A DNA stretch of 64,000 nt from Escherichia coli (GCF_013122565.1 NZ_CP053258.1); one strand, 5' to 3'. Shown: positions 3,332 through 20,365, numbered from the stretch's first letter. Made by a program: numbers and translations. The notes: a model not told the origin generated them from the letters alone.

Positions 3332-3628
3332 GTGTTGTATGTTATTTACGCTCAAGACAAAGCTGATAGCCTCGAAAAACGCCTTTCCGTTCGTCCGGCA
3401 CATTTAGCACGTTTACAGTTACTGCATGATGAAGGTCGTTTGTTGACAGCTGGTCCAATGCCAGCGGTAGACAGTAACGATCCAGGGGCTGCGGGATTTA
3501 CTGGCTCAACCGTTATTGCTGAATTTGAATCGCTGGAAGCAGCTCAGGCCTGGGCCGATGCTGACCCGTACGTAGCGGCAGGTGTCTATGAACACGTTTC
3601 AGTGAAACCATTTAAGAAAGTGTTCTGA
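3332..3628 (+). CDS. yciI: YciI-family protein (98 aa, GTG start preceded by AAGGAG)
   Basis: [18 protein letters not shown] sequence recognised as YciI; SD aaggag 9 nt upstream of GTG at 3332. Confidence 0.9.
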
Positions 3629-15772: not shown

Positions 15773-18448
15773 ATGGCTGTTACTAATGTCGCTGAACTTA
15801 ACGCACTCGTAGAGCGTGTAAAAAAAGCCCAGCGTGAATATGCCAGTTTCACTCAAGAGCAAGTAGACAAAATCTTCCGCGCCGCCGCTCTGGCTGCTGC
15901 AGATGCTCGAATCCCACTCGCGAAAATGGCCGTTGCCGAATCCGGCATGGGTATCGTCGAAGATAAAGTGATCAAAAACCACTTTGCTTCTGAATATATC
16001 TACAACGCCTATAAAGATGAAAAAACCTGTGGTGTTCTGTCTGAAGACGACACTTTTGGTACCATCACTATCGCTGAACCAATCGGTATTATTTGCGGTA
16101 TCGTTCCGACCACTAACCCGACTTCAACTGCTATCTTCAAATCGCTGATCAGCCTGAAGACCCGTAACGCCATTATCTTCTCCCCGCACCCGCGTGCAAA
16201 AGATGCAACCAACAAAGCGGCTGATATCGTTCTGCAGGCTGCTATCGCTGCCGGTGCTCCGAAAGATCTGATCGGCTGGATCGATCAACCTTCTGTTGAA
16301 CTGTCTAACGCACTGATGCACCACCCAGACATCAACCTGATCCTCGCGACTGGTGGTCCGGGCATGGTTAAAGCCGCATACAGCTCCGGTAAACCAGCTA
16401 TCGGCGTAGGCGCGGGTAACACTCCGGTTGTTATCGATGAAACTGCTGATATCAAACGTGCAGTTGCATCTGTACTGATGTCCAAAACCTTCGACAACGG
16501 CGTAATCTGTGCTTCTGAACAGTCTGTTGTTGTTGTTGACTCTGTTTATGACGCAGTACGTGAACGTTTTGCAACCCACGGCGGCTATCTGTTGCAGGGT
16601 AAAGAGCTGAAAGCTGTTCAGGATGTTATCCTGAAAAACGGTGCGCTGAACGCGGCTATCGTTGGTCAGCCAGCCTATAAAATTGCTGAACTGGCAGGCT
16701 TCTCTGTACCAGAAAACACCAAGATTCTGATCGGTGAAGTGACCGTTGTTGATGAAAGCGAACCGTTCGCACATGAAAAACTGTCCCCGACTCTGGCAAT
16801 GTACCGTGCTAAAGATTTCGAAGACGCGGTAGAAAAAGCAGAGAAACTGGTTGCTATGGGTGGTATCGGTCATACCTCTTGCCTGTACACTGACCAGGAT
16901 AACCAACCGGCTCGCGTTTCTTACTTCGGTCAGAAAATGAAAACGGCTCGTATCCTGATTAACACCCCGGCTTCTCAGGGTGGTATCGGTGACCTGTATA
17001 ACTTCAAACTCGCACCTTCCCTGACTCTGGGTTGTGGTTCTTGGGGTGGTAACTCCATCTCTGAAAACGTTGGTCCGAAACACCTGATCAACAAGAAAAC
17101 CGTTGCTAAGCGAGCTGAAAACATGTTGTGGCACAAACTTCCGAAATCTATCTACTTCCGCCGTGGCTCCCTGCCAATCGCGCTGGATGAAGTGATTACT
17201 GATGGCCACAAACGTGCGCTCATCGTGACTGACCGCTTCCTGTTCAACAATGGTTATGCTGATCAGATCACTTCCGTACTGAAAGCAGCAGGCGTTGAAA
17301 CTGAAGTCTTCTTCGAAGTAGAAGCGGACCCGACCCTGAGCATCGTTCGTAAAGGTGCAGAACTGGCAAACTCCTTCAAACCAGACGTGATTATCGCGCT
17401 GGGTGGTGGTTCCCCGATGGACGCCGCGAAGATCATGTGGGTTATGTACGAACATCCGGAAACTCACTTCGAAGAGCTGGCGCTGCGCTTTATGGATATC
17501 CGTAAACGTATCTACAAGTTCCCGAAAATGGGCGTGAAAGCGAAAATGATCGCTGTCACCACCACTTCTGGTACAGGTTCTGAAGTCACTCCGTTTGCGG
17601 TTGTAACTGACGACGCTACTGGTCAGAAATATCCGCTGGCAGACTATGCGCTGACTCCGGATATGGCGATTGTCGACGCCAACCTGGTTATGGACATGCC
17701 GAAGTCCCTGTGTGCTTTCGGTGGTCTGGACGCAGTAACTCACGCCATGGAAGCTTATGTTTCTGTACTGGCATCTGAGTTCTCTGATGGTCAGGCTCTG
17801 CAGGCACTGAAACTGCTGAAAGAATATCTGCCAGCGTCCTACCACGAAGGGTCTAAAAATCCGGTAGCGCGTGAACGTGTTCACAGTGCAGCGACTATCG
17901 CGGGTATCGCGTTTGCGAACGCCTTCCTGGGTGTATGTCACTCAATGGCGCACAAACTGGGTTCCCAGTTCCATATTCCGCACGGTCTGGCAAACGCCCT
18001 GCTGATTTGTAACGTTATTCGCTACAACGCGAACGACAACCCGACCAAGCAGACTGCATTCAGCCAGTATGACCGTCCGCAGGCTCGCCGTCGTTATGCT
18101 GAAATTGCTGACCACCTGGGTCTGAGCGCACCGGGCGACCGTACTGCTGCTAAGATCGAGAAACTGCTGGCATGGCTGGAAACGCTGAAAGCTGAACTGG
18201 GTATTCCGAAATCTATCCGTGAAGCTGGCGTTCAGGAAGCAGACTTCCTGGCGAATGTGGATAAACTGTCTGAAGATGCATTCGATGACCAGTGCACTGG
18301 CGCTAACCCGCGTTACCCGCTGATCTCCGAGCTGAAACAGATTCTGCTGGATACCTACTACGGTCGTGATTATGTAGAAGGCGAAACTGCAGCGAAGAAA
18401 GAAGCTGCTCCGGCTAAAGCTGAGAAAAAAGCGAAAAAATCCGCTTAA
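15773..18448 (+). CDS. adhE: Bifunctional acetaldehyde-CoA / alcohol dehydrogenase AdhE
   Basis: 891-aa [29 protein letters not shown]; N-terminal ALDH and C-terminal Fe-ADH domains. Confidence 0.98.
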
Positions 18449-18543
18449 TCAGTAACGCTGTCTGGCAACATAAACGGCCACTTCTGGGCAATGCCGATCA
18501 GTTAAGGATTAGTTGACCGATCCTTAAACTGCGGCACTATAAC

Positions 18544-18570
18544 GGCTTCCACAACAGGGAGCCGTTTTCT
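18544..18570 (+). terminator. Rho-independent terminator downstream of adhE
   Basis: Hairpin ggcttcc-acaaca-gggagcc followed by gttttctt. Confidence 0.65.
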
Positions 18571-18571
18571 T

Positions 18572-19468
18572 ATGCCACTTCTCAATGATCTGCTCGATTT
18601 CAGTGACCATCCGCTTATGCCTCCGCCCTCTGCACAACTGTTTGCAGAACACCTTCCCACCGAGTGGATACAACACTGCCTGACGCTTTCTGCTCATGCG
18701 ACCGTTCGCCGCCGTCGTTTACCGGGGGACATGGTTATCTGGATGGTGGTGCAATGAGCCAATTACCGATGTTGTTCGCCGTCTGAACCTGAGCGCGGAT
18801 GGCGAAGCGGGGATGAACCTGCTGGTCCGCAGCGCTGTCACCCAGGCGCGTCAGCGCGTGGGGGCCGCCCCGGTGGAATGGCTCTTCCGCCAGACCGCAC
18901 AGACAGGGGCGCGGAACGTTACCTGAAGGATGACTGGCACGGCCTGCAACTTTTTGCCATTGATGGCGCACAGTTCAGGACACCTGATGAACCCGAGCTG
19001 CGTGAATATTATGGGTCTGCCAACACATCCACTAAGCGGCAGAGCGCCTACCCGGTTATGCGTCTGGTGGCCTTAATGAACCTGGGAAGTCACATTCTGC
19101 TGAATGCCGTGACCGCACCTTACCGGCAGAGCGAAACTGTGCTGGCCCACTCCATGCTCGCCACCATCCCGGATAACTCTATTACGTTGTTTGATAAGCT
19201 TTTTTACAGCGAAGACCTGCTGCTGACGCTGAACCAGAAGGGTTGTAACCGCCACTGGCTACTGCCTGCGTGGAAGAATATCGCATCAGAAATGATAGTG
19301 CTGGGAAACACGGCGTCACCAGGGACCATCCCGAAACGACTGGAGCATCTTCGGGGTGCTCTGGAAGTGGTGTTCATAACAAAACGCCCCCGACCATCAA
19401 GGCCGAGGGCGGTTAAGATATCAAAAACCCGTTATCCTGTGAAACATAGTGCCGCTCCTCTTAAGTGA
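18572..19468 (+). pseudogene. insZ: Degenerate IS4-family transposase remnant (insZ-like), split over three reading frames
   Basis: Three consecutive plus-strand ORFs (61, 76 and 196 aa) in different frames whose products read as transposase fragments; position between adhE and tdk matches the K-12 insZ pseudogene as I recall it. Confidence 0.65.
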
Positions 19469-19747
19469 ACGGCATTGCCCTTCTGGGACCGTTTTTTGTT
19501 TACCCAAAGCAACTTTTCCATAAACCGACAGCATTAGCCTTCATCATATTTGCGACGATGTATAACGCCTACACACAGCGATATTGTACTTTACAGGTCA
19601 CAAGTCAATGTCGGTGTATAAGCGCTCTGGGAGGCGTATAGCGGCGTTAAAAAACTGCCGAGAAGGGTGTATAGCCCGGAAGAAGTGCGTAAAACGAACT
19701 GACAGGATAAAAGCGCCCTGCTCACCCTGTCAGTAAAAAAATTCTTA

Positions 19748-20365
19748 TTAATCGTGGCGATGCCTTTCCTGAATAGCCGTTAATGAGCCGACTTCTAACG
19801 CCTCTTTATAGTGTTTACGGCATACAGAAACGTAGCGTTCATTACCACCAATAACCACCTGCTCACCTTCGTTATAAGGTCTGCCTGCTTGATCAAGACG
19901 CAGCACCATGCTTGCTTTACGGCCACAAAAACAGATGGTTTTTAATTCAACCAGTTTGTCGGACCATGCCAGTAAGTATTGGCTGCCAATAAATAATTCA
20001 CCTCGAAAATCGGTACGTAAACCATAACAAAGTACGGGTATATCGAGTTGATCGACAACCTCCGATAATTCATATACTTGTTGTCTGGTTAAAAACTGGC
20101 ATTCATCAACCAGTACGCAATGAATTGCCTGCTGTTCATGTTCCGCACGAATCTCATCAAATAATGATGAATTTTGGTTAAATAATTTTGCAGGCGATGA
20201 CAAACCTATACGCGAGCTGACTTTCCCGGCACCAAAGCGATCATCAATTTCTGCCGTATATACGACAGTGCTCATGCCGCGTTCCTGGTAATTGTATGAA
20301 GATTGCAACAATGCTGTAGACTTACCCGCATTCATTGCGGAATAGTAGAAATATAGCTGTGCCAT
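19748..20365 (-). CDS. tdk: Thymidine kinase
   Basis: 205-aa [20 protein letters not shown] with P-loop and C-terminal zinc-binding cysteines. Confidence 0.96.

Follow-up and report, generated by a model that had tools for sequence, protein, structure and literature searches.

ISZ' in the loop of the Escherichia coli adhE terminator: an inactivated IS4-subgroup element whose own terminator probably took over

A terminator hairpin at the left end of IS200 is said to block impinging transcription. The concept is the one described below for ISZ', in which an intrinsic terminator carried by the element and placed before the transposase gene would act as a shield from host read-through, but IS200 belongs to an unrelated family with an HUH/Y1 transposase, and has neither inverted repeats (IRs) nor target duplication. 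IS200 is not known to replace a host terminator destroyed by its own insertion. Insertion sequences (ISs) that target REP sequences or other palindromes, which are IS1397, ISKpn1, IS621 and the IS4-family member ISRm22, share with ISZ' a preference for extragenic palindromic hairpins (PMC1525189). Their targets are REP repeats, while ISZ' goes to unique gene-end terminator hairpins lying between A and T runs.

De Palmenaer et al. (2008, PMC2266710) defined the IS4 subgroup by the end signature -AATR--------WTW, a target duplication of 10-13 bp, a length of 1400-1650 bp, a single transposase ORF, and a complete DDE triad accompanied by Y(2)R(3)E(6)K. IS4 itself (insG), the type element of both family and subgroup, has the domain architecture and end signature of ISZ' and a terminator hairpin abutting the transposase ATG, and in other E. 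coli it is found inserted in the same adhE terminator loop. It differs from ISZ' by an amino acid identity of only 38%, by DNA similarity confined to the ends and by a 12-bp instead of a 10-11 bp duplication. A closer relative is an intact 1430-bp element carried by IncF plasmids such as pE105-1 (transposase WP_094312392.1) and found also 3' of silE in E. coli ATCC 8739, with ~95% nucleotide identity to ISZ' over aligned bases. Its IRs and 5' UTR, terminator hairpin included, are identical to those studied here and it generates an 11-bp duplication in GC-rich hairpins. Unlike ISZ', it codes for a 445-aa transposase with Nterm_IS4, a complete DDE_Tnp_1 and YREK.

The DNA analysed here, called the window throughout, is a stretch of 64,000 nucleotides from E. 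coli (NZ_CP053258.1). In the part of interest the gene order is ychE, adhE, the ISZ' element, tdk, hns and galU, with the following features:

15773-18448, plus strand: adhE coding sequence (891-aa ORF; annotated as adhE at homologous loci), the gene whose terminator was struck
18489-19477, plus strand: ISZ'/insZ element, 989 bp, delimited by comparison with an empty-site genome and the intact relative
19698-19734, minus strand: intrinsic terminator of tdk (fold of -20.5 kcal/mol, z -4.7), outside the element and given as context
19748-20365, minus strand: tdk coding sequence (ORF and annotation at homologous loci), the convergent neighbour downstream of the element

At the same place the annotation of K-12 MG1655 has a mobile element 'ISZ' and the pseudogene insZ (b4573), whose span corresponds to the 897-bp interval (18572-19468) that an earlier sequence-only reading had singled out. 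RefSeq/PGAP describes the homologous locus as an 'IS4 family transposase' pseudogene, 'incomplete; missing C-terminus'. The window element agrees with the K-12 copy in locus, in its length of 989 bp and in three deletions of 17, 1 and 423 bp, at an identity of 99.1%; nine substitutions separate the two and at most of them the window has the nucleotide of the intact relative. The presence of a different element at the K-12 locus was looked for and excluded. The segment 18489-19477 is thus the E. coli K-12 ISZ' element with its insZ pseudogene; it is already catalogued, is not new and needs no new entry. The reading proposed for the whole locus, to which we give a probability of about 0.85, is that of a dead IS4-subgroup element lying in the loop of the adhE terminator, with its own terminator taking over.

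Ends of ISZ' and the split adhE terminator

Boundaries were set by comparison of the window with an empty-site E. coli genome, with the intact 1430-bp IncF-plasmid copy and with E. coli A13, which has a different element at the site. The features recognised in this way are:

18472-18488, plus strand: left half of the intrinsic terminator that adhE had before the insertion, AAACGGCCACTTCTGGG, whose last 10-11 bp are the left duplication copy
18489-18506, plus strand: IR-L, 18 bp, CAATGCCGATCAGTTAAG, the same sequence as in the intact 1430-bp plasmid copy
19460-19477, plus strand: IR-R, 18 bp, CTTAAGTGAACGGCATTG (reverse complement CAATGCCGTTCACTTAAG), identical to that of the intact copy and holding the transposase stop codon
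19478-19497, plus strand: right duplication copy together with the other half of the original adhE terminator and its T-run, CCCTTCTGGGACCGTTTTTT, recognised by comparison with the empty site

The sequence-only reading had seen no inverted-repeat ends. The search of the flanks finds both: the window has one IR-L and one IR-R, which match at 16 of 18 positions (CAATGCCGATCAGTTAAG against CAATGCCGTTCACTTAAG), and outside them lies a target duplication of 10 or 11 bp (left CCACTTCTGGG, right CCCTTCTGGG), a C-run making its exact length ambiguous. The two duplication copies each differ from K-12 at one position, with CCAC for CCCC on the left (18478-18488) and GGGA for GGGG on the right (19478-19488). 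The best match to the window among complete E. coli genomes reaches 98.7% for the 1.3-kb region and 99.3% for the 18 kb upstream.

The IRs of ISZ' have the signature of the IS4 subgroup and its duplication falls within the 10-13 bp of the published definition (PMC2266710). The length of 989 bp and the three ORF fragments depart from the 1400-1650 bp and single ORF of the subgroup, to which the intact relative conforms with 1430 bp and one 445-aa ORF. The comparison also shows that the K-12 'ISZ' feature, which ends at the insZ stop codon (1294426, NC_000913.3), is 9 bp short on the right, the true end of IR-R being at 1294417 (1294417-1294426 corresponds to window 19468-19477).

In empty-site E. 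coli the sequence AAACGGCCCCTTCTGGGGCCGTTTTTTT, found 23 nt past the adhE stop codon, has the terminator-like organization of a 10-pair hairpin followed by a U-run (fold of -19.5 kcal/mol, z -4.5). The two parts of this hairpin are separated in the window, where the left junction is unfolded (-4.5 kcal/mol, z +0.8) and nothing more than a weak hairpin is left at the right one (-8.8 kcal/mol, z -0.5). ISZ' occupies the loop of this hairpin, the ancestral adhE terminator, which its insertion destroyed. Among the curated K-12 3' ends considered in the next section none is listed at the equivalent of either half (PMC7815308 Supp. file 1).

The left junction of ISZ' was also encountered under another name. 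NZ_GG667584.1, a 241-bp scaffold labelled Corynebacterium striatum ATCC 6940, contains the E. coli adhE-terminator/ISZ' left junction with a K-12-type flank (AAACGGCCCCTTCTGGG followed by CAATGCCGATCAG). Contamination of the assembly with E. coli DNA is almost certain.

The element-borne terminator and the probable 3' end of adhE transcripts

Two terminator-like hairpins lie within ISZ', one at each end and both facing inward:

18541-18571, plus strand: element-borne intrinsic terminator, with the stem AACGGCTTCC/GGGAGCCGTT at 18541-18566 and a TTCTT tail running straight into the transposase ATG
19385-19411, minus strand: inward-facing terminator-like hairpin inside the coding sequence, found by consensus scan only, with 11 pairs, 9 of them GC, followed by TTTTGTT

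The first hairpin has the stem and U-tract of an intrinsic terminator: 6 of the 10 pairs of its stem are GC, and TTCTTATG comes after it. Compared with the U7 of the ancestral terminator, its UUCUU tail is the weaker U-tract. A Shine-Dalgarno-like GGGAG is found in the 3' arm. The 5' UTR of the element folds with -33.5 kcal/mol (z -6.0). The intact plasmid copy matches hairpin and tail at every base, which identifies them as the element's own and corrects the earlier view that the transposase ATG abuts the terminator of adhE.

IS4 proper and many relatives have a hairpin of different sequence, also followed by a T-run, at the same place before the ATG. In an alignment of 19 distinct sequences of the IS4 clade 97.4% of the cells are paired and 5 of the 12 pairs are compensatory; none of 500 shuffles did as well and slid partners gave at most 61% pairing. 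The covariation test was made for the IS4 clade alone and against a stated structure, the ISZ clade being too invariant for such a test. RNAalifold predicted no structure for a mixed alignment of ISZ-type and IS4-type 5' UTRs because the hairpins of the two clades are offset by two columns. A match of the segment 18539-18575 (plus strand) to the Rfam family ctRNA_p42d is sub-threshold (33.4 bits, E 4e-5, where the gathering score is 50); membership was rejected on this score and the match read as generic resemblance between sequences with a hairpin and a U-run.

Curated 3' ends of MG1655 RNAs obtained by Term-seq in three growth conditions (Adams et al. 2021, PMC7815308 Supp. file 1) bear on the use of this hairpin. 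An end at 1295321-1295330 had been forecast beforehand. A strong end is listed inside that range, at 1295324(-), in all three conditions with scores of ~51,000-100,000 and the context ...AACGGCTTCCACAACAGGGAGCCGTTTTCT (PMC7815308). It corresponds to window position 18570, within the U-tract and ~122 nt past the adhE stop codon. The 3' end belonging to the tdk terminator is listed at 1294198(+) in the same file. We infer that K-12-type strains end the adhE mRNA at the terminator of the element, a statement that extends to the origin of the RNA at adhE, to termination as the event that generates the end, and to its validity in the strain of the window; the latter is not the Term-seq strain (its best match to any complete E. 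coli is 99.3%), but the hairpin sequence itself is identical. Models of the adhE 3' end or 3' UTR in K-12-like strains describe insertion-sequence DNA; about 40% of E. coli strains would use the ancestral hairpin instead, and about 21% have IS4 at this place.

The same 3' end might instead belong to a short transcript begun inside the element, or be a processing product, and not reflect termination of adhE mRNA. This is the alternative that survives best, although it is unlikely. The end is classed by the authors as 'orphan' (PMC7815308) and a -35-like TTGACC box is present at 18513-18518. However, the promoter scan called no plus-strand promoter-like site between adhE and the hairpin, the best -10-like hexamer lies at a 19-nt spacer from the box and the site itself is a canonical hairpin followed by a U-tract. 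Moreover, no other 3' end is listed for K-12 between the stop codon of the highly expressed adhE and tdk (PMC7815308). Termination of adhE transcripts at the element's hairpin thus remains the preferred explanation.

The corresponding hairpin of the IS4 resident in K-12 has no 3' end listed in the Term-seq data, an uninformative absence, as that copy may receive no transcription. IS4 proper has a promoter-like TTGACC-16-AAGAAT that overlaps the start of the 5' arm of its hairpin. Its own transcripts could therefore start within the hairpin and avoid termination, to which those coming from outside would be subject.

The second hairpin (19385-19411) is kept in the intact copy (2848-2874 of its locus) and the right end of IS4 proper has an analogous opposite-strand hairpin with a T-run (positions 3489-3514 of the E. 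coli A13 locus). It might block transcription arriving from the tdk side; the 5' hairpin and the right-end hairpin together would then insulate the element from transcription on both sides.

Alleles at adhE-tdk and target preference

The site between adhE and tdk was surveyed in 5426 complete E. coli genomes and three alleles were found:

Empty site with intact ancestral terminator: 2161 of 5426 genomes (~40%)
ISZ' remnant, near-full-length match: ~1883 of 5426 genomes
IS4 proper, identified by its right junction: ~1131 of 5426 genomes (~21%)

IS4 at the adhE hairpin is flanked by a 12-bp duplication of its own, CCCCTTCTGGGG. This duplication, the 38% amino acid identity and the lack of DNA similarity beyond the ends show that IS4 and ISZ' inserted independently into one hairpin. 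The suggestion of a former integration hotspot between adhE and tdk is borne out by these data, and the site behaves as a hotspot. It provides a natural three-allele series (empty, ISZ', IS4) for how terminator-targeting ISs limit damage.

In E. coli A13 the two copies of the IS4 duplication differ, the left being CCCCAGAAGGGG (2081-2092) and the right CCCCTTCTGGGG (3519-3530), with the 4-nt hairpin loop inverted. In strains JA0257 and AVS0790 the copies on the two sides are direct, and the difference in A13 seems to be due to a small inversion that took place secondarily between the CCCC and GGGG arms. O157:H7 strains are another case. They have a second, differently truncated remnant of the ISZ-type element elsewhere in the genome (positions 303-1430, without the left end; near nanM in TW14359, 1414-2118), and at their adhE-tdk site the ancestral terminator is intact.

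Independent ISZ-type insertions lie 3' of silE and of etsC, in both cases at a hairpin followed by a T-run, and IncF plasmids have one in a hairpin; the duplication measures 11 bp at three other ISZ-type sites. A broader view of target choice was obtained by scanning species-representative genomes for the IR-L motif, which yielded 114 unique left flanks. In these flanks A makes up 74-80% at positions -19 to -17; next come a GC-rich stretch and an AT-rich loop, and G occupies -4 to -1. An A-run of at least 4 is present at 67% of the 114 sites against 7% of controls and a stem of at least 4 pairs ending at the junction at 46% against 6%, figures that refer to left flanks only and to sites that are not phylogenetically independent, many copies coming from a few IS-rich genomes (Kosakonia oryziphila, Budvicia and one soil MAG). 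The survey agrees with the target consensus AAA-N20-TTT reportedly established for IS4, whose spacing is fitted exactly by the site of the IS4 resident in K-12. It agrees as well with the 'spectacular' specificity for target arms noted for the IS4 subgroup (PMC2266710). A search of the literature on IS4 target specificity, terminator targeting and the pheST attenuator insertion returned nothing usable.

A further question is whether ISZ' might still be mobilisable as a MITE-like element, moved in trans by the transposase of its 95%-identical intact relatives on IncF plasmids and chromosomes. The identity of both IR-L and IR-R to those of the intact copy speaks for this, as does the presence of a full-length relative in 162 genomes. 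ISZ' indeed combines intact IRs and a duplication with the lack of a functional transposase, as expected of a MITE-like element, but the multiple dispersed copies that are equally expected are not seen: among the matches listed, the deleted form (989-993 bp) is at adhE-tdk only, the median number of places per genome is one and the lesions are always the same. IS transposases, in addition, usually act preferentially in cis. Mobilisation in trans is improbable, slightly more so than a short transcript or processing product at the hairpin, and nothing points to past movement of the deleted form.

Transposase lesions, history of the element and possible terminator swapping

Three plus-strand ORFs (18572-18757, 18696-18926 and 18878-19468) tile the insZ interval, as the sequence-only reading had it. 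All three match IS4-family transposases, which rules out an absence of transposase similarity. ORF1 corresponds to positions 4-43 of Pfam Nterm_IS4 (E 4e-11), ORF2 to positions 48-95 of the same domain (E 2e-11) and ORF3 to positions 2-116 of the 200 of DDE_Tnp_1, i.e. its first half (E 2e-8). ORF3 also matches NCBIfam transpos_IS4_1 (E 2e-22); being truncated, the protein does not reach the full-length cut-off of this model. The similarity is far beyond chance and these matches give the Nterm_IS4 and DDE_Tnp_1 homology of the IS4 subgroup; together with the RefSeq and K-12 annotation they bear out the proposal of a frameshifted IS4-family transposase remnant. Aligned with the intact copy, the coding sequence resolves into three fragments:

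18572-18750, plus strand: insZ fragment 1, codons 1-59, first half of Nterm_IS4, ending at a 17-bp deletion (18750/18751)
18751-18905, plus strand: insZ fragment 2, second half of Nterm_IS4, in the ORF2 frame, ending at a 1-bp deletion after 18905
18906-19468, plus strand: insZ fragment 3, with D135 (AIDG), D214 (LFDK) and the native C-terminus

The global alignment shows exactly three deletions, of 17, 1 and 423 bp. The first two add up to 18 bp and ORF1 and ORF3 are therefore in one frame (their starts, 18572 and 18878, both leave a remainder of 2 when divided by 3), so that the ORFs lie in two frames and not in three, as had been described. The 423-bp deletion is in frame, lies at 19278/19279 where short TATCGC repeats border it, and takes out amino acids 242-383, including Y311-R314-E318-K325, that is YREK with the catalytic glutamate E318. 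The window copy keeps D135 and D214 of the DDE triad and has lost E318 and YREK, all of which are present in the intact relative. It is hence a dead derivative of an IS4-subgroup member and not an active member. The native TGA stop is preserved at 19466-19468, inside IR-R, and the loss is internal; the C-terminus is retained and 'missing C-terminus' in the PGAP annotation is inaccurate. The record should be corrected to an element that is complete-ended and internally deleted, not C-terminally truncated.

The frame repaired for the deletions has no stop codon and 283 of the 295 aligned amino acids are identical to the intact protein. A dN/dS of 0.11 (dS 0.18) relative to the intact copy indicates that most of the 5% divergence arose between functional lineages and not through decay. 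The window, K-12 and strain A34 have all three deletions in common, at ~99% identity within the element, showing that inactivation is older than their divergence. The earlier characterization of the insertion as old and decayed is thus right as to age, which fits also its presence in ~1883 genomes, and overstated as to decay.

A more extreme form of that description, a heavily decayed fragment that lacks ends and has neither structure nor role beside an intact adhE terminator, is very unlikely. The frameshifts and the partial loss of the DDE domain on which it draws are real, and the PGAP wording, 'incomplete; missing C-terminus', goes in the same direction. It is refuted, however, by the two IRs with their duplication and by the fold comparison showing the true adhE terminator to be split by the insertion; the retained C-terminus and native stop place the missing piece inside the gene. 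Less likely still is expression of ORF3 (196 aa, with two D residues and the C-terminus) as a functional truncated protein, for instance a transposition inhibitor like that of Tn5: its long open frame and native C-terminus and an insZ signal that increased with PhoB activity in one array study (PMC3465305) might suggest this, but the first 9 codons are outside the native frame, a terminator lies upstream, the carrier-to-carrier dN/dS of 0.55, based on 9 substitutions only, shows no constraint, and such a protein is unlikely because strain A34 has a further 1-bp deletion (equivalent to 19342) that breaks ORF3.

The history that goes with the reading of ISZ' as a dead element in the adhE terminator is as follows. 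ISZ' transposed, co-directionally with adhE, into the loop of the rho-independent terminator hairpin of this gene, duplicating 10-11 bp; transposases of the subgroup favour targets composed of an A-run, a GC hairpin and a T-run. The insertion destroyed the ancestral terminator and brought another one, located between IR-L and the transposase ATG and conserved in structure within the subgroup. This terminator most likely evolved against outside read-through into the transposase gene. The three deletions killed the element, those of 17 and 1 bp by frameshift and that of 423 bp by in-frame loss of the catalytic glutamate and YREK, and all three occurred before the carrier lineages separated. The element's hairpin would now end adhE transcripts ~122 nt past the stop codon.

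The terminator swap at adhE is well supported structurally and by one published K-12 data set. Its extension to a general 'terminator swapping' by IS4-subgroup elements is tentative, and the odds are somewhat against it. Such elements would home to gene-end terminators and carry inward-facing ones, the first abutting the ATG and showing covariation, the second a candidate near IR-R, and in this way would replace the destroyed host terminator and insulate the transposase gene. If this is true, dead ISZ' and solo left ends may persist partly as the working terminator of a host gene. The frequency of ISZ' is explained equally well by simple inheritance as by terminator-based retention.

Solo ISZ-type left ends, extending from IR-L through the terminator hairpin (87-108 bp), are found just 3' of a DMT transporter gene, eno and etsC (loci L134, 1501-1640; L136, 1500-1640; and L135, 1501-1608). 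The T-run is the exact end of the remnant in L134 and L136, where the ATG is now GTG and a shared sequence GTGCAnAG...CCCCCAGCTAGGCT follows. In L134 an IS50-like end, CTGTCTCTTATACACAA, follows as well, which suggests that another element inserted right at the terminator.
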